A DNA stretch of 38,282 nucleotides, taken from positions 1-38,282 of IMG/VR virus record IMGVR_UViG_3300011894_000001, one strand, 5' to 3'. A program made the translations under genes and the position numbers. Shown here piece by piece: positions 5,103 through 30,145 of the stretch. This DNA is from a virus. Within the stretch, counting starts at the first letter, position 1, and each line of letters starts with the position of its first letter. The notes below the pieces were generated by a model, which had not been told where the DNA came from, searched no databases, and saw nothing but the letters and a program-made list of their open reading frames with translations.

Positions 5103-6113
5103 ATGCGTACAGAAACACGTGCTAAGTACAATAAAGTCATGGTTGAGTTAGCAAAACTCAATGGGGTTGAAAAAGTTTCACAAAAATTTAATGTGACTCC
5201 AACTGTTCAACAAAAGCTTGAAGATAAAATTCAAGAATCATCTGAATTTTTGAAGAAAATTAATATTTTTGTTGTTCCTGAACAATCGGGTTCTGCGGTT
5301 GGTCTTGGTATTTCTCGCCCTATCGCATCTCGTACAAATACGGATGCTGGAGAGCGTCAAGCTACAGATCCAACTGGTATGGATGAGCGTTTTTACTTTT
5401 GTCGTAAAACCGATTTTGATACCGCAATTAAGTACGCAAAACTTGATCAATGGGCAAAATTCAAAGATTTTTATAGTCGATTCCGTGGCGCTATCGTAAA
5501 ACGACAAGCTCTGGACCGTATCATGATCGGGTTCAATGGTATCAGTATCGCTTCTAATACGGACATTACAGCAAATCCTTTATTGCAAGATGTGAATAAA
5601 GGCTGGTTGCAAAAAATGCGTGAAGAGAATGAATCGCGTGTAATGAAATCAGGTGCTGCGCAAGGAAAAATTACAGTAGGTAAAACTGGCGATTATAAAA
5701 ATCTTGATGCATTGGTTATGAATATCGTTGATGAAATGATTGATGACGTTCACCAGGGCAATCCAGATTTAGTCGTAATGTGTAACCGAAAAACTGTTTC
5801 GGATAAATACTTCCCATTGGTCAATAAAGATCAAGACAACTCTGAAAAACTAGCCGCAGACATCATCATTAGCCAAAAACGTATGGGTGGATTGCCTGTT
5901 TACTCAGTACCGTTTTTCCCTGAAGGAATCATCTTTGTAACTACATTCGATAATTTATCGATTTATGTTCAAGAGGGTGCTCGTCGTCGTACAGTCATTG
6001 ACAATCCAAAACGTGACCAAATCGAGAACTATGAGTCTTCAAACGAAGATTATTACATTGAAGATCTTGGTCTTGCATGTATGGCTGAAAATATCGAAAT
6101 TCTGGCGGAGTAA
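5103..6113 (+). CDS. N: Major capsid protein (P2 gpN-like)
   Basis: 336 aa, positioned between the scaffold and small terminase genes. Confidence 0.9.
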   Translation: MRTETRAKYNKVMVELAKLNGVEKVSQKFNVTPTVQQKLEDKIQESSEFLKKINIFVVPEQSGSAVGLGISRPIASRTNTDAGERQATDPTGMDERFYFCRKTDFDTAIKYAKLDQWAKFKDFYSRFRGAIVKRQALDRIMIGFNGISIASNTDITANPLLQDVNKGWLQKMREENESRVMKSGAAQGKITVGKTGDYKNLDALVMNIVDEMIDDVHQGNPDLVVMCNRKTVSDKYFPLVNKDQDNSEKLAADIIISQKRMGGLPVYSVPFFPEGIIFVTTFDNLSIYVQEGARRRTVIDNPKRDQIENYESSNEDYYIEDLGLACMAENIEILAE

Positions 6114-6119
6114 TTTGTC

Positions 6120-6983
6120 ATGAACTTGGCTCGAAAGCACTTCCAACAGCATCAAGCCAAATCCGCAGCTGAGACAGCTGCGGAGTTCGGTACCATGCGA
6201 AATACAAATGCCTATGAGCAGCAACTTTTGCAGCTTAATAGTGATAAAAATCGACTCAAAAATATTCAGTCCAAACAAAATAAAGTCGAATTAAAACGCC
6301 AGTTAATTCCAAATTACAAACCATATGTGGAAGGTATTTTAGAAGTAAAACCTGGTGTTCAGGATGCAGTAATTACTGAGATTTTGGTTTGGTCAATTGA
6401 TATTGGTGATTTTGATTTTGCACTTGATATTGCCGAATACATTCTGAAATACGGCTTAAAACTTCCAGACCGTTTTGAACGTTCTGAAGCATGCTTTATT
6501 ACTGAAGATATTGCAGAAGAATTTTTAAAATTACTCAAAACTGAAGCTGGTATCGATCAAAAAGGATTAGATCAATTAGTGCGTTTAGAACGTCTAATTA
6601 CTGATAAATCTTTGCCACAAAATCGTCTTGATATGCCAGATGAAGTTAAAGCTAAGCTTTATCTCGCTTTAGGTAAAGGTGAAATGCAGTTTTTGACTGG
6701 TGATCTTGAAAATGATTTACCACGCTCTGTTCATGCTCAATGTTGGTTAGAAAAAGCATTAGATCTTGACGATAAATGTGGCGGTCGAACTGATCTAAAC
6801 AAAATGAGTAAGCTTTCTACCAAGTTATTAGCAGAAAGAGAAACTACAGATACTTTGGCTTATCAAAAAGAATCTCAAGTAGTTACTACCAACGAACAAA
6901 CAGAAGTTACCGACGTTTTGTTAAATCAAAATGGAACGCCTGTGGTTGATGACCACGGCAATATGGTACCGACTTCTGAATAA
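6120..6983 (+). CDS. M: Terminase small (endonuclease) subunit (P2 gpM-like)
   Basis: 287 aa, syntenic with P2 M, which follows the capsid gene. Confidence 0.8.
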   Translation: MNLARKHFQQHQAKSAAETAAEFGTMRNTNAYEQQLLQLNSDKNRLKNIQSKQNKVELKRQLIPNYKPYVEGILEVKPGVQDAVITEILVWSIDIGDFDFALDIAEYILKYGLKLPDRFERSEACFITEDIAEEFLKLLKTEAGIDQKGLDQLVRLERLITDKSLPQNRLDMPDEVKAKLYLALGKGEMQFLTGDLENDLPRSVHAQCWLEKALDLDDKCGGRTDLNKMSKLSTKLLAERETTDTLAYQKESQVVTTNEQTEVTDVLLNQNGTPVVDDHGNMVPTSE

Positions 6984-7084: not shown

Positions 7085-7534
7085 ATGGGATTTATCGCAA
7101 ACGGTGCAATAACCCCAAGTCATATCACTATTTCAAGTGGCACCTTTTTTCCTGAAATTTCTCTAGATGAGATCCGCAGTTTTGTTCGGATCGACGGATC
7201 AGTGACCGATGTTCGATTGCAACAACTTACTCGGGAAGAAGTCATCGATGTAAATCGTTTACTTGCAAACTTAGTGATGAAAGCCGAAAAGCTAGTTGAT
7301 TTAGCTGTTAATGAAATTGACGGTAAAGCAGATACTGAAGTGCTTTATTTTTCAGCCGTATCGAATGGTGTAGCAGCAAAAGTAAACGAAATTTATCGTA
7401 ACTATGACAGTACTAATTCTGGTGTAAAAAAATCAGAATCGATGGATTGTTCAGTTGATGACTACCGACGAAATAAGCAATGGGCGATTCAACAGCTAAA
7501 AGGCGAAAACCACAGCATAGTTGAGTTGATATGA
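7085..7534 (+). CDS. L: Head completion/stabilisation protein (P2 gpL-like)
   Basis: 149 aa with strong RBS AAGGAG. Syntenic; ATGA overlap with the next gene. Confidence 0.8.
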   Translation: MGFIANGAITPSHITISSGTFFPEISLDEIRSFVRIDGSVTDVRLQQLTREEVIDVNRLLANLVMKAEKLVDLAVNEIDGKADTEVLYFSAVSNGVAAKVNEIYRNYDSTNSGVKKSESMDCSVDDYRRNKQWAIQQLKGENHSIVELI

Positions 7535-9728: not shown

Positions 9729-10181
9729 ATGGCTGAGCTTGAATATCTTTCTGAGCATTTAAATGCTTTATTAGTATCCCTAAACGATGCAGCGCGTCGC
9801 AAAATGGCAATGGTAATTGCACGTAAAATACGTGCAAGCCAAAGTCAGCGTATTACTCGACAACAGAATCCTGACGGTAGTGCTTATATCCCGAGAAAAA
9901 ATTTAAGAAAAAGAAAAGGGCAGATTAAGAAAAAAATGTTCATGAAATTAAAAACAACACGGTTCATGAAAATCGAAAATATTCCTAATGGGGTAACTAT
10001 TGGATTTGATCAACGAGTATCGAGACTTGCCCGAATTCACCAGGACGGATTAATTGATAATTTGAAATATAACGGACGATCTTTCAAAGTCAGATATGCA
10101 CAGCGTCAATTGCTTGGCTTTACTGAAGCTGAAATTGAAATGATTGAAAATGACGTTCTTAACTTTATAGATTCAAAATGA
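9729..10181 (+). CDS. S: Tail completion / virion morphogenesis protein S (P2 gpS-like)
   Basis: L..LL.SL...ARRKM...IARKIR.SQSQRI..QQNPDGS...PRK matches the gpS pattern. Syntenic. Confidence 0.85.
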   Translation: MAELEYLSEHLNALLVSLNDAARRKMAMVIARKIRASQSQRITRQQNPDGSAYIPRKNLRKRKGQIKKKMFMKLKTTRFMKIENIPNGVTIGFDQRVSRLARIHQDGLIDNLKYNGRSFKVRYAQRQLLGFTEAEIEMIENDVLNFIDSK

Positions 10182-23872: not shown

Positions 23873-24035
23873 GAATCTTACCTGGTGTTTGATGCTCTGG
23901 GCATTCAGGTAAGGCACTCAAGGTGCTCTGGAATGTGTTTAGGGTTTTACAACGAGGGCATTTAATTTCGATTTGATTAAAGCCATCTGTTCTAGCCAAT
24001 AATTTAAAACAACATTGGCATTTTAAATTTTGCAT
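23838..24035 (-). CDS. com: Com-like zinc-finger protein (Mu Com family translational activator)
   Basis: MQNLKCQCCFKLLARTDGFNQIEIKCPRCKTLN parallels Mu Com MKSIRCKNCNKLLFKADSFDHIEIRCPRCK. Its 3' end overlaps the methylase start by 35 nt. Confidence 0.85.
   Translation of the reverse strand: MQNLKCQCCFKLLARTDGFNQIEIKCPRCKTLNTFQSTLSALPECPEHQTPGKIHDTKPLTTIQS
23876..23912 (-). promoter_or_regulatory. mRNA hairpin sequestering the dam Shine-Dalgarno
   Basis: On the minus strand, CTTACCTG (23912-23905) pairs with CAGGTAAG (23883-23876). The second arm is the SD 4 nt upstream of the dam ATG. Loop of 21 nt. Confidence 0.6.
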
Positions 24036-24085
24036 ATATTTTTCTGCATTAGAAAAACTGACTAAATACTATAAAAAATATAGAA

Positions 24086-24107
24086 AAAGAACAAATATTT
24101 GTTCTTT
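24086..24107. promoter_or_regulatory. Perfect 22-bp palindrome in the com/ogr divergent intergenic region (candidate operator)
   Basis: AAAGAACAAAT|ATTTGTTCTTT is self-complementary. An extra half-site-like ATATGTTCTT lies at about 24127-24136. Confidence 0.5.
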
Positions 24108-24149
24108 TAATTTAAAATAAATATAAATATGTTCTTAAGGATTTGATAA

Positions 24150-24446
24150 ATGATTGCACCCAATAACTACAACAAAATAAACAAAAACAATTCCCGTCCA
24201 CAACTCGTTTGCCCACACTGTAAAGTTACTAATCTAAAAATTCGCTCAAGTGAGCAACGACACCCTTTACTGAAGGACGTTTGGCTAACATGTCCTAACT
24301 TATTTTGTGGTTTTACATGTGGTGGCCATATTGAAATAACTCATACCATTTCGCCGAGTGCAACGCCAGATCCTCAAATTCATATCCCTACTTTGTTAGA
24401 GCTGAAGTCAGCAAATGATGAAAATTGGGAAGAAAAAAATGACTAA
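24150..24446 (+). CDS. ogr: Ogr/Delta-family zinc-finger late transcription activator
   Basis: CPHC-x23-CPNLFC spacing resembles the Ogr C-x2-C...C-x4-C finger. IRSSEQ and TC.N..C.F....IE also resemble Ogr. Located after D as in P2. Confidence 0.75.
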   Translation: MIAPNNYNKINKNNSRPQLVCPHCKVTNLKIRSSEQRHPLLKDVWLTCPNLFCGFTCGGHIEITHTISPSATPDPQIHIPTLLELKSANDENWEEKND

Positions 24447-24687
24447 ATTTTTAACTGTAATATTTATAAGCCTAGTGTTTATAGGGTGTTCTTCATCTAA
24501 TGATGCAATTAATGCATTAAAAGCAAATGGATTTACGGACATTCAAACTGATGGTCATGCTTTTTTTGCTTGTAGTAAAGACGATACATTTTCCACAAAA
24601 TTTACAGCTAAAAATAAAGATGGCCAGAAAGTTAAAGGTGCTGTTTGCAGTGGTTGGCTGAAGGGAGCGACTATCCGTTATGATTAA
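24415..24687 (+). CDS. Small lipoprotein (cargo; possible superinfection-exclusion factor)
   Basis: Signal peptide ending in lipobox FIGC followed by SSS. Alternative start ATG 24439, with GGGAAG 6 nt upstream. Overlaps the end of ogr. Confidence 0.75.
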   Translation: MMKIGKKKMTKFLTVIFISLVFIGCSSSNDAINALKANGFTDIQTDGHAFFACSKDDTFSTKFTAKNKDGQKVKGAVCSGWLKGATIRYD

Positions 24688-24898
24688 TGTCACACCAGAC
24701 CATTCAATTGCACATGAAGCTTATGAAGCTTTAAAGAACCTTAAATGTGATTACGTAAATATCATTGCCCATACCTATCAAAAGACAGCACATGAAGAAG
24801 GTTTTTTTATTGCAGGCATTTATCCAAATTTTAATGAAGGGGGATTTAATCGCTTAGATTGGTTAGCTGAATATGAGCAGCTGCAGGAAAAAATTTAA
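24680..24898 (+). CDS. Hypothetical 72-aa protein
   Basis: ORF overlapping the lipoprotein stop, so probably translationally coupled. No family recognised. Confidence 0.5.
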   Translation: MINVTPDHSIAHEAYEALKNLKCDYVNIIAHTYQKTAHEEGFFIAGIYPNFNEGGFNRLDWLAEYEQLQEKI

Positions 24899-24996
24899 CT
24901 AGGGCCGATTTCTACAATTTGTAATTCTTCTAGTGGTCAATTTTTATATAATGTACAATCTATTGATCTAGATACTGAGTATAAAAGAAATTACTT

Positions 24997-25773
24997 ATGT
25001 TAATTCAGCCACAAACCCAAATTGATAAACTATTGGGAGAGTTATCAAACTTACCAAAAGGTCGGGTATTGTCTGAATTTGCACTAGCTAGATTTCTAAA
25101 TCAAGCTGATAAGCTTATTTCATTTGATGCTGCTCACGCTTGGCATGTAAAAGGCGTGGCAAATTATTACGCAAATGAAGTGGCAGAAATGATTCGCTGT
25201 TTTGATATAGCAATAAATTTATTACCTACAGACCGAACACTTCTAAATAACTATGCCGCATGTTTAATGAATCAAGGGCAACTTGAGGAGTTATACGAGC
25301 TTGTGAAATCACATATAGATTTTTATATAACAGATATCGATCTTATGCTGAAATTAAGTCGACTCGCTTTAGATAGATTCAATAAAAATTTTATAGATGA
25401 AATAAATCAGTTGTTTGATATGTATTCTGGATATCCGCATATCAATCAAATTCAGCAAGAGTTCTATTTAGAAATACAGAAAGTTGCATCAAAATTAGAG
25501 AATCTGAATATCTCATGGAATGATGCTCTTCAAGTTTCAAACCTAGCATTTCAGCTTATGTTTAATAACAAAGTAAGATCAAATTCTCTTGTTAGAATCA
25601 AAGCTTCAGATGATGAAATAGTAAATATTATTCCTTTATATACAGATATCGAAACCGTTTTTAAGTTAAATGATGAAATTTTTGACGAAATTTTTTCGAG
25701 AGGTTTAATTGATGTATGGAATAAATTTATGTGTATGTTTGTTGTTGCAAGTCATGATGCGATAGCTGCATAG
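24997..25773 (+). CDS. Hypothetical 258-aa all-helical (TPR-like) protein, first gene of a two-gene cargo cassette
   Basis: Very AT-rich, with a TATAAT at 24947-24952 upstream. The helical repeat-like segment AHAWHVKGVANYYANEVAEMIRCFDIAINLLPTDRTLLNNYAACLMNQGQ is TPR-like. Confidence 0.65.
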   Translation: MLIQPQTQIDKLLGELSNLPKGRVLSEFALARFLNQADKLISFDAAHAWHVKGVANYYANEVAEMIRCFDIAINLLPTDRTLLNNYAACLMNQGQLEELYELVKSHIDFYITDIDLMLKLSRLALDRFNKNFIDEINQLFDMYSGYPHINQIQQEFYLEIQKVASKLENLNISWNDALQVSNLAFQLMFNNKVRSNSLVRIKASDDEIVNIIPLYTDIETVFKLNDEIFDEIFSRGLIDVWNKFMCMFVVASHDAIAA

Positions 25774-25789
25774 AGGGTATAGATATTCA

Positions 25790-26185
25790 ATGTCAGTTAA
25801 AGCACGAGATATATTTCAGCATGCTGAGTCTTTTTTTGATCCTAAAAATTGTGATGAAATTGTAGCTAGGATGCTGATAAATAGAGCATATTATGGTATT
25901 TATGGTTATGTTTTGAGTGAGGTAGAGAATCGTCTTTTCTATGATCTAGACAAATCAAATCCTAGTGTACATCAAGCCCTCATTAACACCTTTAAGTACA
26001 AAAAGTGTTCTTCAGTAGATCAACAAAAATTAGTTGCTAAAATTGCAACACAGTTGCGTCAGGCAAGATTATTAAGATCAAATGCTGATTATGAATTGCA
26101 ATATCATATAACTCACAAAGATACTGAACAGGCTCTTTTATTGGGCAAACAAATTTTTGAAATGATTGAGTTACTTGATATTTAG
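25790..26185 (+). CDS. HEPN-like 131-aa protein, second gene of the cassette
   Basis: RAYYGIYGYVLSE helix plus LRQARLLRSNADY resemble the HEPN domain layout (N-terminal A.YY helix, C-terminal R-x4-(H/Y) helix). The canonical His is not evident. GAGGG RBS. Confidence 0.55.
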   Translation: MSVKARDIFQHAESFFDPKNCDEIVARMLINRAYYGIYGYVLSEVENRLFYDLDKSNPSVHQALINTFKYKKCSSVDQQKLVAKIATQLRQARLLRSNADYELQYHITHKDTEQALLLGKQIFEMIELLDI

Positions 26186-26323
26186 ACGTTCTCTTAAATT
26201 TTAATACGTTAATTAATCTAACAATGTACCAGAGGTTCTGTACTTAATGAGTTGGGCAGAAGCTCCACAGATGTGGCTGGCTGGATATAGAGAAAAACAT
26301 GATCAAGATAGCTTAGATTTTAA

Positions 26324-26521
26324 TTAAAAGTTGTCTACTTTGGAGGGGAATGTCCACCAAATCTTATTAAAATAAACCTCATTACGTAAGAAATTGATTT
26401 CTAATTCATTCCCATTGTAATCATAAAGATTGGTGACTTCTCCTTTCTTATTTATCTCTGCAAGCAAATTACAACCGTGCTCTATTTTTCTAGCTTCTAA
26501 AACCCTGATCATGACTTGCAT
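26324..26521 (-). CDS. Hypothetical 65-aa protein
   Basis: ORF 8 nt downstream of the 152-aa gene on the same strand. No family recognised. Confidence 0.45.
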   Translation of the reverse strand: MQVMIRVLEARKIEHGCNLLAEINKKGEVTNLYDYNGNELEINFLRNEVYFNKIWWTFPSKVDNF

Positions 26522-26529
26522 ATAATTTC

Positions 26530-26988
26530 CTATTTAACAGTTTTATAAAATTTTATCTCATATTCTTTAGCTTGTTCAGGCGTAAATTCTCTGTCCAAAC
26601 GAAGTAAAAATAGTCCTTTTTTATACATGTATTGATTAGTCATTGGCATTGCCAAATGTACACTTTTTATATAGTTATAACGTCTATTTAAATCTGCTTG
26701 GTTTCTAAATTTTTCAATAGTCCCACCAACAAATTTTTCAGGCGGTATATCACTATCATAATAACCATCACTTTCAAACTTGGGGTCGACTTCAGGATCT
26801 GGCCATGAAACTTTTTCTATGTATTGATTAGGTCTACCTAATTGGTGATTCAAATCATTTTTTTCATCAAATGGATAGACGAACTCAACACCTTTAATTT
26901 TCATTCCAAAAACAACTTGAATAGCATCTTGTGCAGAACATACAGATGTTGCTAATAAAAAAAACAATCCCAAAAATAATTTATGCAT
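26530..26988 (-). CDS. Secreted/periplasmic 152-aa protein of unknown function
   Basis: Classical Sec signal peptide MHKLFLGLFFLLATSVCSA|QD. A 119-bp AT-rich upstream gap implies its own promoter. Confidence 0.65.
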   Translation of the reverse strand: MHKLFLGLFFLLATSVCSAQDAIQVVFGMKIKGVEFVYPFDEKNDLNHQLGRPNQYIEKVSWPDPEVDPKFESDGYYDSDIPPEKFVGGTIEKFRNQADLNRRYNYIKSVHLAMPMTNQYMYKKGLFLLRLDREFTPEQAKEYEIKFYKTVK

Positions 26989-27107
26989 TAATAAAACCTA
27001 TTATTAAAAATTTTATAAAAGACAATAATCACGATTAACAAATCCTAGATTTTGCACTAGATATTTTCTTTAGATAAGGACTAAAAATTTGAGTTTTTAC
27101 ATGTAAT

Positions 27108-27632
27108 CTACTCGAAGAATTTTCCAAACCACTCTGAGACTTTATTAAAATTTAAAACAAAGGTTGCAAATCCACCAATAAAAAAGATCGTTAGAATATT
27201 AACAAGAAAGTTTTTACCAACTTCACTAAACCACCACCCAGCTCCTTGTTTTTCTGTCATAAACCCATTGATTGTATTCACTTTTGTTTCAACTATTTCC
27301 AGTTGGGCTTTAACTTTTGAATCAAGTAGTGCTTGGTCTTCAAGGGCTGCTATTTCGGAACTTAATGCAACATTTAAAAGATTACTAACGACTATATTTG
27401 CTTGATCACGAAAACCTTTTAAAGAGGAGTCAAGTTCACATTGTGTGTGAAATGTTTCCCACTCTTGATCGTTTGGGTCTCGTTGATGGCGCGATTTTAT
27501 TTGATTAATAAAATCTATCTTATGCTTTTTATAAATTGTATAGGCAACAATACTTTCAAGATTGTACCCCTGATCATTTTCAGTAAGCCTTTGAAATACC
27601 CAGCTATATTTAGGGTCAGGAGTTTGACTCAT
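27108..27632 (-). CDS. 174-aa protein with cytoplasmic helical N-domain and C-terminal transmembrane anchor
   Basis: C-terminal FLVNILTIFFIGGFATFVLNF hydrophobic helix preceded by GAGWWF. ATGA overlap with the upstream 62-aa gene. Confidence 0.65.
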   Translation of the reverse strand: MSQTPDPKYSWVFQRLTENDQGYNLESIVAYTIYKKHKIDFINQIKSRHQRDPNDQEWETFHTQCELDSSLKGFRDQANIVVSNLLNVALSSEIAALEDQALLDSKVKAQLEIVETKVNTINGFMTEKQGAGWWFSEVGKNFLVNILTIFFIGGFATFVLNFNKVSEWFGKFFE

Positions 27633-27817
27633 AACCCTTGCATAGCCTTATTGAAAGCTGCATTCACTGCTTCCATATCTGGTTTAAAGTTACGAACAAC
27701 TTTTCGACCTTCAGCAGACAATGGGATATCTTCTGCTGTGATACCAGGATTATCACGCAGCATTTGATTAAGACGACGGACACTCTCCACAGTAAAGACG
27801 CGTTTACGTTTTTCCAT
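27629..27817 (-). CDS. 62-aa basic protein, first gene of minus-strand cargo operon
   Basis: Start moved to ATG 27817 (MEKRKRVF...), with AGGTG upstream. The track start at 27898 would lie upstream of the predicted promoter. Confidence 0.55.
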   Translation of the reverse strand: MEKRKRVFTVESVRRLNQMLRDNPGITAEDIPLSAEGRKVVRNFKPDMEAVNAAFNKAMQGL

Positions 27818-27851
27818 ACTGCACCTGATTAAATAAAAATAGTACATTGCT

Positions 27852-27883
27852 ATATTGACATAACGATTCACTATCGGCAATAT
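27852..27883. promoter_or_regulatory. Overlapping back-to-back divergent sigma70-like promoters
   Basis: Plus strand: TTGACA (27855-60), N17, CAATAT (27878-83). Minus strand: TTGCCG (rc of 27874-79), N16, CAATAT (rc of 27852-57). Each -35 overlaps the other promoter's -10. Confidence 0.45.
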
Positions 27884-27889
27884 GGAAAA

Positions 27890-27973
27890 GCACAGCAAAA
27901 TCTGTGTACAGGCCTAGGAAACCTGTTAATTTCTCAGAGAGCAGAAAAAATCCGCTCGCAGCGGCTTTTTTTT
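27890..27973 (+). ncRNA. Candidate short terminated transcript carrying boxes a1/b1 (leader or decoy RNA)
   Basis: Runs from the predicted TSS near 27890 to the 16-bp terminator hairpin. Contains GGCCTAGGAAACC (27911-23) and CTCAGAGA (27933-40), both complementary to 28041-28064. Confidence 0.35.
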
Positions 27974-27999: not shown

Positions 28000-28005
28000 T
28001 CGTTA

Positions 28006-28081
28006 TGGTAGATCGGCAGGGCAGCCTTGCGCTGGCCGTTTCTCTGAGTACGGTTTTCCTAGCCTTGTCGGTCTGCCACCA
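28006..28081 (+). ncRNA. Candidate c4/CI-like antisense immunity RNA (boxes b' and a')
   Basis: GC-rich island in AT-rich DNA. b' TCTCTGAG (28041-48) sits in the loop of hairpin CCGT/ACGG. a' GGTTTTCCTAGCC (28052-64) follows. GGCAG (28015-19) can pair with CTGCC (28073-77), followed by ACCA. a' and b' are complementary to both upstream (a1/b1) and downstream (a2/b2) boxes. Confidence 0.45.
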
Positions 28082-28137
28082 TTACCCTAGGAAAGTAGTG
28101 GGGGTAGGTTTGCTAAAACTTACTCAGAGTATTCACC

Positions 28138-28308
28138 ATGAAAAAATCTATTCATGTCATCGAGCACACGCCTATCTATGATTTAGAAGCGTTTAAACAA
28201 CGCCAGAAAAAGCGCAAAATTCACCAATTATTCAAAAACGTTATCGACACATTCACGTTCTTATGTGCAGTCTTTATGACTTTTTCTATATTATTCATAG
28301 GGGGATAA
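28138..28308 (+). CDS. Unannotated 56-codon ORF: small protein with C-terminal TM helix (icd/kil-like position)
   Basis: MKKSIHVIEHTPIYDLEAFKQRQKKRKIHQLFKNVIDTFTFLCAVFMTFSILFIGG. Below the ORF-track cutoff. Its stop is 4 nt before the rha ATG. Box b2 (28121-29) covers its weak SD region. Confidence 0.5.
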   Translation: MKKSIHVIEHTPIYDLEAFKQRQKKRKIHQLFKNVIDTFTFLCAVFMTFSILFIGG

Positions 28309-28312
28309 GCTC

Positions 28313-29119
28313 ATGACGACACTCGAATTACAAAATGCTGTATTCATTCAAAATGATCAAATCAAAACTGACAGTCTTAAAGTCGCTGAGATTTTTGGTA
28401 AACCCCATAAAGACGTATTACAAAAGATCAAAACCTTGGATTGTTCAGAGGAATTCACTGAGCGAAATTTTTCGCTCAGCGATTACTTAGATAAATCTGG
28501 ACGTTCATTGCCCATGTATGAAATGACCAAAGATGGCTTTATCTTTCTGGCAATGGGATATACAGGTGCAAAAGCAGCTCAGATCAAAGAAGCCTACATA
28601 AAGGCTTTCAACCAAATGGCTGAGCTGCTCTTAAAACAGCGAAATCAATTGCAAACAATACAAATTGGCTCAGTTGTTCAATTACGCTCAGGTAGTCCAA
28701 ATTTAACTGTAAATAATATTTTCGATGATATTGCTGAAGTGATCTGGTTTAGAGGAGGGCGTATTGTTCGCGAACATCTTCCGATTAGTTGCTTAAGTTT
28801 GGGGGAAAGCGATCAACTTGCACCAAATGTTGCAAGTTCACTTGAGTCATTTTGGTCAAACATGTACACACATGGTATTCACAACTTCAATCATAGCAAT
28901 CGTACCGATCAAATTGCGATTAACCTCACACAAGTTCTAGACCTATTCCCCAATCTGTTTAAACGTCCAGATCTAATTCAGACCCTACCTCACAGTAAAC
29001 CGCCATATCCTAAATATTTGGAACACAATATTGCAATTCAGAGTAGGTTGGAACGTAAAACGATTCGTTGTTGGATATTTACAAGTAGCCAACCTACCAT
29101 GATTGATGTCGGTCGCTAA
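28313..29119 (+). CDS. rha: Rha-family phage regulatory/antirepressor-like protein with DUF2158-like middle domain
   Basis: N-terminus SLKVAEIFGK.HKDVL..I..L......F.ERNF....Y.D..GR..PMYEMTKDGF.FLAMGYTG.KA...K.AYI.AFN.M is the pRha signature. GSVVQLRSGSPNLTV...W is DUF2158-like. Strong GGGGGA RBS. Confidence 0.8.
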   Translation: MTTLELQNAVFIQNDQIKTDSLKVAEIFGKPHKDVLQKIKTLDCSEEFTERNFSLSDYLDKSGRSLPMYEMTKDGFIFLAMGYTGAKAAQIKEAYIKAFNQMAELLLKQRNQLQTIQIGSVVQLRSGSPNLTVNNIFDDIAEVIWFRGGRIVREHLPISCLSLGESDQLAPNVASSLESFWSNMYTHGIHNFNHSNRTDQIAINLTQVLDLFPNLFKRPDLIQTLPHSKPPYPKYLEHNIAIQSRLERKTIRCWIFTSSQPTMIDVGR

Positions 29120-29124
29120 GGGGA

Positions 29125-29691
29125 ATGATGATGAACGAAAATATTATTCCCTACGTGCCCATTGCACCACGGGTTCAGGCAACCAATGAAAAAAGCCGTT
29201 TACTTTGCGAACAATTATTTTTGCTCATAGACAGTGTGACCAGTAGTCAAATCCTTTTTAACCACCAGACTGATAAGGGATTCTTATCAATTTCCCCCGA
29301 TCAAATTAATGATTTGATTGAAGAACTGTCAAAAACTAATCGTTCATTCAAAAAAATCGATATAAAGTTATTAAATTCGTCGCTAAAAGATCTTATTTAT
29401 CCTAAGTTTAATGGAGAACACACCATTATTAGCCCGATCTGGAACAACACAGAGGTACGGGTTTGGCAATTTCAATTAAATCAAATTGCTAATGGGGTAA
29501 ATATGGAACTTTTAGATAAAGATGCAGAATTGAACTTAGACATGGCTTTAAGTGCTTTACGCATTTGGCGTAATTCATTAGAAACTGGGTCTGAAAATAG
29601 AGATGTAATTTATAAAAGAAATGATCTAATTTACAAATTAATGGACTTAGAGCATCGATTGCAAATAGTCCAGCGAGAACTAGAGGAATAG
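29125..29691 (+). CDS. Hypothetical 188-aa protein
   Basis: AAGGGGA RBS, co-oriented with rha. No family recognised. Confidence 0.55.
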   Translation: MMMNENIIPYVPIAPRVQATNEKSRLLCEQLFLLIDSVTSSQILFNHQTDKGFLSISPDQINDLIEELSKTNRSFKKIDIKLLNSSLKDLIYPKFNGEHTIISPIWNNTEVRVWQFQLNQIANGVNMELLDKDAELNLDMALSALRIWRNSLETGSENRDVIYKRNDLIYKLMDLEHRLQIVQRELEE

Positions 29692-29733: not shown

Positions 29734-30078
29734 TCATTCTTTATTTTCGACTTCTTTCGCATAAACAGAACTTAAACGTAGTAAAGCTTCCTGAGCTTCA
29801 GGGCTAAGCTGTCTATATGCTTTTAATAACAAACTTTCTTCACTTGTAAGACCACTAAAGTCTGGATCAATGCCAAGCAATACATAACGGATATCTATTC
29901 CCTGTTTTTGTAGTTTTGCTAGGTAAACCCACTGATCTGGCACTTTGTTGCGGACATAGTTACCTAACGTATTTTCATGGGCATCGATACTGCGTGAAAG
30001 CGGTTTTGCTCTCAAATTTTTACGCTCCAGCTCTTCTGTGAACCTTTGTGTAATCTCTACAGCCAAATTTTCGGACAT
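29734..30078 (-). CDS. Phage repressor, HTH (XRE/CI-like)
   Basis: HTH-like segment LSRSIDAHENTLGNYVRNK. Divergent from the early operon. ATG 30078 with GGTGA SD is preferred to the GTG at 30087. Confidence 0.7.
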   Translation of the reverse strand: MSENLAVEITQRFTEELERKNLRAKPLSRSIDAHENTLGNYVRNKVPDQWVYLAKLQKQGIDIRYVLLGIDPDFSGLTSEESLLLKAYRQLSPEAQEALLRLSSVYAKEVENKE

Positions 30079-30096
30079 ATATTTCACCGATATATA

Positions 30097-30145
30097 TTGA
30101 AAGACTAAATATTTATGCTATAGTGATTCGTAGCACATCACTATA
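30097..30145. promoter_or_regulatory. Early promoter plus operator dyad in the repressor/early-gene intergenic region
   Basis: TTGAAA (30097-102), N16, TATAGT (30119-24). Perfect inverted repeat TATAGTGAT (30119-27) / ATCACTATA (30137-45) with a 9-nt spacer overlaps the -10. Confidence 0.6.

Follow-up and report, generated by a model that had tools for sequence, protein, structure and literature searches.

Among described phage loci, the immunity regions of P1 and P22 have the layout closest to the one analysed here. In P1, the genes simC-simB-simA are transcribed divergently from c4-icd-ant, a small ORF comes first in the sim operon, the divergent promoters have a repressor operator between them, and the repressor C1 binds Oc4. 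In P22, sieA-orf59a-mnt is read divergently from arc-ant via fully overlapping promoters, thereby combining a small regulator with a membrane exclusion gene. Among toxin-antitoxin (TA) systems, CptA/CptB (YgfX/YgfY) of E. coli is a two-gene operon encoding a small soluble protein and an inner-membrane protein; membrane toxins of this type have a patchy, mobile distribution, and the presumed host target is reached through their cytoplasmic part. Also, Rst_2TM_1TM_TIR and other defence systems with a membrane protein plus a TIR protein have been found in P2/P4 hotspots, the one of P2-like phages in E. coli being located between gpA and gpQ (PMC9122126). In this study, we analysed a pair of genes in an Acinetobacter phage that form an autonomous, translationally coupled and horizontally mobile module of a previously undescribed family.

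The sequence analysed, here called the window, is a complete 38.3-kb virus record of a P2-like temperate phage of Acinetobacter, with portal, terminase, tail, gpD, ogr-type, primase and integrase genes. A sequence-only reading of the window had proposed a minus-strand pair of genes for proteins of 62 and 174 aa, overlapping by ATGA and transcribed against the flanking phage operons, and both ORFs were found where it had placed them. The gene of the small basic partner (27629-27817, minus strand; 62 aa, pI 10.1) is followed by that of a tail-anchored membrane protein (27108-27632, minus strand; 174 aa, PHROG 22648). At the junction the ATG of the 174-aa ORF (27632-27630) overlaps the stop codon TGA of the 62-aa ORF (27631-27629), and the pair is read against the flanking genes of the plus strand. 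The ATG at 27817 is the likely start of the 62-aa ORF, since it is preceded by the Shine-Dalgarno sequence AGGTG and 8 of the 13 homologue clusters of this protein are exactly 62 aa long; for the 174-aa protein 21 homologue clusters were found. When both genes were compared with the orthologues of a prophage in A. higginsii (L001) and of the IMG/VR contig L010, dN/dS was 0.09-0.17 at saturated dS. Both are thus under strong purifying selection and, as the homologue clusters also show, are real genes and not chance ORFs.

The pair has the same position and orientation as the sim genes of P1, lying divergently beside an immI antirepressor operon as the P1 sim and P22 sieA genes do, and like the sim operon it starts with a small ORF. 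The gap of 320 bp upstream of the pair contains a leader RNA and a C4 RNA. On the plus strand, an immI-type operon promoter (27855-27883; TTGACA-17-CAATAT) has its start at about 27891, which coincides with position 1 of the match to an isrK-like terminated leader RNA (27891-27971; Rfam 33.6 bits, below the gathering score) carrying the c4 target copies a1/b1. Then follow a C4 antisense RNA (28001-28083, plus strand; Rfam 52.1 bits, gathering score 45) and, at 28138-29691 on the same strand, a tail-anchored ORF of 56 aa that takes the icd position, an antirepressor-type gene of the Rha family and a gene for 188 aa. Leader, C4, 56-aa ORF, Rha gene and 188-aa gene constitute a P1-type c4-icd-ant (immI) operon, an RNA switch that had been missed when the upstream region was taken for a mere promoter. 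C4 has two loops, which can pair with target sites in the leader and with those at 28086-28094 and 28123-28129, shortly ahead of the 56-aa ORF. C4 was found in all close relatives (59-67 bits), with two copies in L006 and L007. Among four Acinetobacter phages (the window, L001, L005 and L008; 27891-28137 of the window) the C4 loops covary with their targets, the matched loop/target sets being CTCTGAG/CTCAGAG, CTCTTTTG/CAAAAGAG, CTCTAGTA/TACTAGAG and CTTCGTG/CACGAAG. These matched differences are natural immunity alleles of the P1/P7 kind.

The likeness to P1 and P22 is one of layout. Comparisons with SieA, SieB and Mnt of P22 and with SimA/B/C of P1 gave no homology (hhalign probability < 1%, no BLASTP alignment), and homology to P1 Icd was rejected as well. 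SimC is a processed periplasmic protein, whereas the 174-aa protein lacks a signal peptide and has its head in the cytoplasm, and sieA has its own promoter without translational coupling to mnt.

For the pair itself, a putative promoter was read from the sequence at 27852-27880 on the minus strand, with TTGCCG (27880-27875), a 17-nt spacer and TGT-CAATAT (27857-27852); transcription from it is predicted to begin at about 27845. Terminator-like minus-strand hairpins at 27964-27952 and 27906-27891 leave about 70 nt for such a promoter. The element is nearly invariant in four relatives, but it was not called in a consensus promoter scan and it fully overlaps the stronger plus-strand promoter, so the earlier statement that the pair has its own promoter holds only as far as a conserved promoter-like element goes. 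Since the pair and immI promoters are the same DNA read in opposite directions, they should exclude each other. Operator-like elements lie at 27839-27874 on the minus strand, namely ATAGTGAATCG at 27874-27864 and ATAG...CTAT at 27853-27839. The 11-mer ATAGTGAWTCG occurs exactly twice in the phage, at 27864-27874 and inside the early-promoter inverted repeat (30120-30144). Of the six ATAGTGA copies of the A. higginsii phage L001, five are in the same two control regions (7301-7325, 9756-9791), including a perfect palindrome 25-39 nt before the small gene. The motif is likely the operator of the 117-aa repressor (29734-30087), and its presence in both control regions of two diverged phages indicates that the prophage repressor probably binds the pair/immI promoter, in the manner of C1 at Oc4 in P1. 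Given the overlap with the immI promoter and the operator-like 11-mer, repression of the pair promoter is conceivable in the lysogen, where the sequence-only reading had expected the genes to be expressed. An inverted repeat of 13 nt (92% complementary) connects the start-codon region of the 62-aa gene (27810-27822) with the core of the overlapping promoters (27877-27889).

Downstream on the same strand, genes for a secreted 152-aa protein and a 65-aa protein (26324-26988, minus strand) occupy a slot that is variable among relatives. Neither a promoter nor a G+C-rich terminator was called within the 119 nt between them and the pair, nor a minus-strand terminator after the pair; both genes are possibly co-transcribed with it. 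In the Acinetobacter relatives the pair is constant and the genes downstream of it differ. The GC content is 30-34% over 24.0-27.5 kb compared to 38% for the phage. Located at 24000-27500 are small genes linked to ogr, the genes for 65 and 152 aa, and a TPR-HEPN pair, which is the cassette next to the module and is assigned on a weak HEPN_IX match; the 174-aa gene extends into this segment with its 3' part. Because its gene content differs among close relatives, the segment is regarded as a cargo hotspot between gpD/ogr and the immunity region, at a different site from the E. coli hotspot between gpA and gpQ (PMC9122126). In two relatives (L006, 3112-4174; L007, 3007-4069), the two C4 copies flank an inserted gene for a 176-aa membrane protein and a 93-aa ORF, and this insertion sits between the antirepressor operon and the pair.

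The earlier description of the 174-aa protein as a helical N-terminal part with a single C-terminal membrane segment after GAGWWF was confirmed. GAGWWF precedes a strongly hydrophobic segment (residues 142-160), and the AlphaFold2 model is all-helical with a pLDDT of 88, rising to 97-98 over residues 31-80. From the model and an alignment of 43 diverse members, three parts can be distinguished: a conserved cytoplasmic head (residues 9-100; 27333-27608, minus strand), a variable coiled-coil stalk whose length differs widely in the family (residues 101-130; 27243-27332, minus strand), and a single C-terminal transmembrane helix with conserved Asn, Thr and Gly and predicted N-in topology (residues 142-162; 27147-27209, minus strand). 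A long helix (residues 68-128) runs into the membrane helix in the model. Each of the 43 members carries a single hydrophobic segment close to its C-terminus, and the excess of Lys and Arg on its N-side places the head in the cytoplasm. The tail after the membrane helix is short or rich in Pro, Ser and Thr in the family, and in the 174-aa protein only about 12 residues are predicted to face the periplasm. The cytoplasmic part has a pI of about 5.2. Among the 43, Y31, Y34, K35 and K38 are invariant on one helix face of the head (motif AYxxYKxxK). The head, and not the membrane helix, is the best-conserved part of the family, the opposite of what a variable sensor would show, which gives no support to the proposal of a sensor coupled to a membrane-disrupting effector. 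The conserved polar residues of the membrane helix and the coiled-coil stalk would fit oligomerisation. One family member, P0049 (291 aa), has two tandem heads before the membrane helix, which shows the head to be an independent folding unit; fusions of partner and head were not found, P0049 being a head duplication. An apolipoprotein repeat model matches the stalk of some family members.

For the 62-aa protein, the AlphaFold2 model shows three helices at a pLDDT of 70. A ribbon-helix-helix fold found no support, as the model has no strand, and neither family and structure searches nor this model revealed a recognisable DNA-binding fold. Conserved motifs are FT-E-V-R-N near the N-terminus and N-A-F-K-A near the C-terminus; the partners evolve fast, yet have both motifs in common. 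A hidden Markov model of the Acinetobacter partners, searched against 1532 ORFs, had as its four best non-self matches the syntenic ORFs of L011, L012, L017 and L003, and the reverse profile ranked the 62-aa ORF of this phage first. Partner homology across lineages is thus weak but reciprocal.

No curated family matches either protein, in agreement with the sequence-only reading, which had recognised none. Pfam, NCBIfam and PADLOC gave nothing significant for the two proteins or for 43 and 21 relatives, and no family of PADLOC-DB 2.0 matched either of them or the orthologues on plasmids. A profile search of the sequences of solved structures (PDB) had no match for either protein. Foldseek searches of the AlphaFold2 models against PDB and BFVD gave nothing at E < 0.5 for the 174-aa protein or the partner; the homeodomain-like rows among the results were too weak to be meaningful. 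A literature search found no relevant work on tail-anchored exclusion proteins or on C4 together with isrK. The head does have profile matches in PHROGs, with phrog_22648 covering residues 3-119 of the 174-aa protein (E = 4.4e-27) and phrog_25194 at E = 6e-5, but both entries are unannotated (unknown function), and neither the partner gene nor the members outside phages are recorded there.

Close homologues of the 174-aa protein (60-97% identity) occur in Acinetobacter only. A profile search of 1.84 billion representatives yielded 471 clusters with E <= 0.001, of which 78 had E <= 1e-10; the clusters listed are mostly of 140-230 aa. Gene context was analysed in 23 lineages, among them a Vibrio inovirus, chromosomal sites, five groups of plasmids, and P2-like, large vibrio-type and Bacteroidales phages. 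The loci with the pair include Acinetobacter phages (L001, L005-L010), large vibrio-type phages (L011, L012), six groups of Bacteroidales phages (L013-L022), Bacteroidales genomes (L003, L035-L038), a chromosomal site between a pseudouridine synthase gene and ffh (L024), and further phage-like contigs (L025, L026). The sequence-only reading had named a survey of co-occurrence outside this phage, with absence counting against the pair. In all 23 lineages a small ORF of 53-84 aa lies directly upstream on the same strand, at a gap of -35 to +14 nt; two of these partners had been missed by gene finders and were recovered by reading frames. With the ATGA overlap, this supports a true, translationally coupled pair, and the objection of absence elsewhere falls away. 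The partner has a pI > 9 in every lineage, and the cytoplasmic part of the large protein a pI < 6.5 in 20 of 23.

Carriers of the module range from myoviruses and siphovirus-like Bacteroidales phages to an inovirus, plasmids both small and large, and solitary chromosomal sites of several phyla, and within this range the module is sporadic. It was present in 5 of 301 Bacteroidales genomes, sits at module boundaries, and was found at one locus only in a genome-contig scan for the family. A tblastn search of 50,697 deposited phage genomes gave only four near-identical records, all Vibrio inoviruses. In the filamentous phage L023 of Vibrio cyclitrophicus (PQ189292.1, Tubulavirales, 11.9 kb) the pair is at 5769-6654, after a zot-like gene, which is the usual cargo position of inoviruses. 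On plasmids it lies beside repC/parB (Agrobacterium plasmids) or between IS elements.

Recognised defence or TA genes are present within about 3 kb of the pair in 9 of the 23 contexts, with none recognised nearby in the other 14. On the A. baumannii plasmid NZ_CP050428 (L039, 7.7 kb), the gene of a CAP12/Pycsar-type TIR effector (PF10137; PADLOC TIR, E = 3e-37) overlaps the 3' end of the large-protein gene and RelB/RelE is encoded 2 kb from the pair. This operon (NZ_CP050428.1, 3299-4944) encodes a partner of 60 aa, a family member of 208 aa and a 291-aa TIR protein with an N-terminal TIR domain and a C-terminal half without assigned domain. As a three-gene operon with a one-TM protein and a TIR protein it resembles Rst_2TM_1TM_TIR, and the carrier of the pair in the window is, like the carriers of that system, P2-like, but the PADLOC models match neither the one-TM nor the small protein; the TIR gene is absent in 22 of the 23 contexts. 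On an Acinetobacter phage contig (L010, 1926-3065), a homologue of PD-T4-7 (PADLOC, E = 2e-24), a single-gene defence system (PMC9519451), starts 15 nt downstream of the pair. On the Shewanella plasmid pS18501 the pair follows an AbiGi gene, with IS elements on both sides, and in L003 it follows the genes of NsnA/GmrSD_N and of a HEPN protein. In L019 and L035 it adjoins AAA_15 (NsnB-like/PDC-M55) pairs, in L035 also PDC-S02; in L022 it comes after HicA, and in L024 ParE is nearby. Antirepressor-type genes are also recurrent neighbours in unrelated phages, with Rha or Rha+ANT in L013 and L019-L021 and P22_AR_N in L026. In several Bacteroidales phages, the pair is beside Rha and directly upstream of or beside terS/terL. 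The adjacency to antirepressors may reflect no more than a common residence in the immunity/accessory part of temperate phages.

The pair represents a new family, probably of an already known kind of system. Of the kinds considered, we rank a new TA-like or abortive-defence module first, as a tentative assignment, because the pair is a self-contained two-gene operon with a small, fast-evolving and oppositely charged first product, a patchy distribution and neighbours typical of defence islands. Its genes are co-directional and adjacent, with the small one first and a tight or overlapping junction in 23/23 lineages, which is a TA layout; it is scattered over mobile elements of distant taxa, as TA systems are, and its location corresponds to a defence hotspot in 9/23 contexts. 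Resemblance to CptA/CptB-type systems would be in kind only, as topology and fold differ and the pair is without homology to the TA families of Pfam and NCBIfam. Several points count against a TA-like role: family, profile and structure searches linked the pair to none of the known toxins, antitoxins or defence proteins, the 62-aa protein has no recognisable DNA-binding fold, and the neighbourhood argument is one of guilt by association, with 14/23 contexts lacking a recognised defence gene. A pure pore-forming toxin is not the obvious reading, since the head is better conserved than the membrane helix. Of the original suggestion of an abortive-infection or exclusion pair, the recurrent defence and TA neighbours favour the first half, or a TA-type role.

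Superinfection exclusion, by analogy to P1 sim and P22 sieA, would have the membrane protein block entry or establishment of DNA at the cytoplasmic face of the inner membrane, with the small protein as accessory or regulator. This is unlikely in our view, even though the 174-aa protein is predicted to be membrane-located and the pair is divergent from leader, c4, 56-aa ORF and Rha gene in the layout of P1 and P22. Neither sequence nor profile similarity to SimA/B/C, SieA, SieB or Mnt was found, the conserved domain is cytoplasmic with only some 12 residues periplasmic, and a spread over plasmids, an inovirus and the chromosomes of several phyla is unexpected for a protein tuned to one incoming element. 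Indeed, with a family common to myoviruses, siphovirus-like phages, an inovirus, plasmids and chromosomes, both entry exclusion of a single element and a role in the life cycle of one phage are improbable. The overlapping promoters raise a different, still more doubtful explanation, in which the 62-aa protein acts there as an Mnt-like DNA-binding regulator that the membrane protein sequesters or releases, thereby coupling the antirepressor to a membrane signal in the lysis-lysogeny switch. The only possible pair promoter fully overlaps the immI promoter, mutual exclusion being expected as for Pant/Pmnt of P22, genes for Rha, Rha+ANT or P22_AR_N adjoin the pair in four unrelated phage groups, and the partner is always basic. 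However, the pair also occurs without an antirepressor nearby (on a chromosome, on plasmids, in the inovirus and in large phages), the small protein shows no DNA-binding fold, and besides the repressor-type motif no operator-like repeat specific to the pair was found. Least probable is a helper of the lytic cycle expressed on derepression, i.e., a membrane tether for phage DNA or for a replication or packaging factor, conceptually like p16.7 of phi29. The operator-like repressor motifs over the pair promoter suggest expression after derepression, the invariant Tyr/Lys face could bind nucleic acid, and the position beside Rha and terminase genes in several Bacteroidales phages, directly upstream of or next to terS/terL, could indicate a role in the phage cycle. 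But the module is also at chromosomal and plasmid sites outside phages, among 50,697 deposited phage genomes only the four near-identical Vibrio inovirus records carry it, the head is acidic overall, and the neighbouring cargo is variable and the GC content low, as expected of an accessory gene.

For the TA-like or abortive-defence reading, we infer the binding of head and partner, the toxicity and the trigger, and the following course can be envisaged. The small basic protein would be made first from the common mRNA, bind the head and restrain it, and may autoregulate the operon. The 174-aa protein would insert in the inner membrane via its C-terminal helix, with the acidic head and the coiled-coil stalk in the cytoplasm, and oligomerise. 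Loss or titration of the partner, upon phage infection or loss of the element, would free the membrane protein, which would then damage the membrane or block a conserved host target via the invariant Tyr/Lys face of the head. In this phage, the module heads the leftward accessory operon and has its control region in common with the c4-icd-ant switch. In its widest form, which we put forward with the same reserve as the assignment itself, the pair could be the founding member of a cross-phylum two-gene defence or addiction family, in which a fast-evolving basic partner restrains a tail-anchored inner-membrane protein with a conserved, Tyr/Lys-faced head in the cytoplasm. Such a family would be at home on plasmids, chromosomes and phages of three morphotypes, and would sometimes be coupled to a TIR effector.

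The points that stand out are the breadth of the family and the strict pairing of its two genes, both observed as are architecture and neighbourhood; the function we infer from context. With a tail anchor, a cytoplasmic conserved part and an obligate basic partner, the architecture is unlike that of described membrane effectors. As the accessory operon and the c4 antirepressor switch have one compact control region, the locus also offers an experimentally simple case of promoter competition. Should toxicity and protection both be absent, a pairing so strict and a distribution so wide would still mark an undescribed conserved function of mobile elements. Gut phages and Acinetobacter plasmids are among the carriers of this family, which runs to hundreds of clusters across Proteobacteria and Bacteroidota, and if the pair is a working TA or anti-phage system, it would add a family that current defence and TA finders miss.
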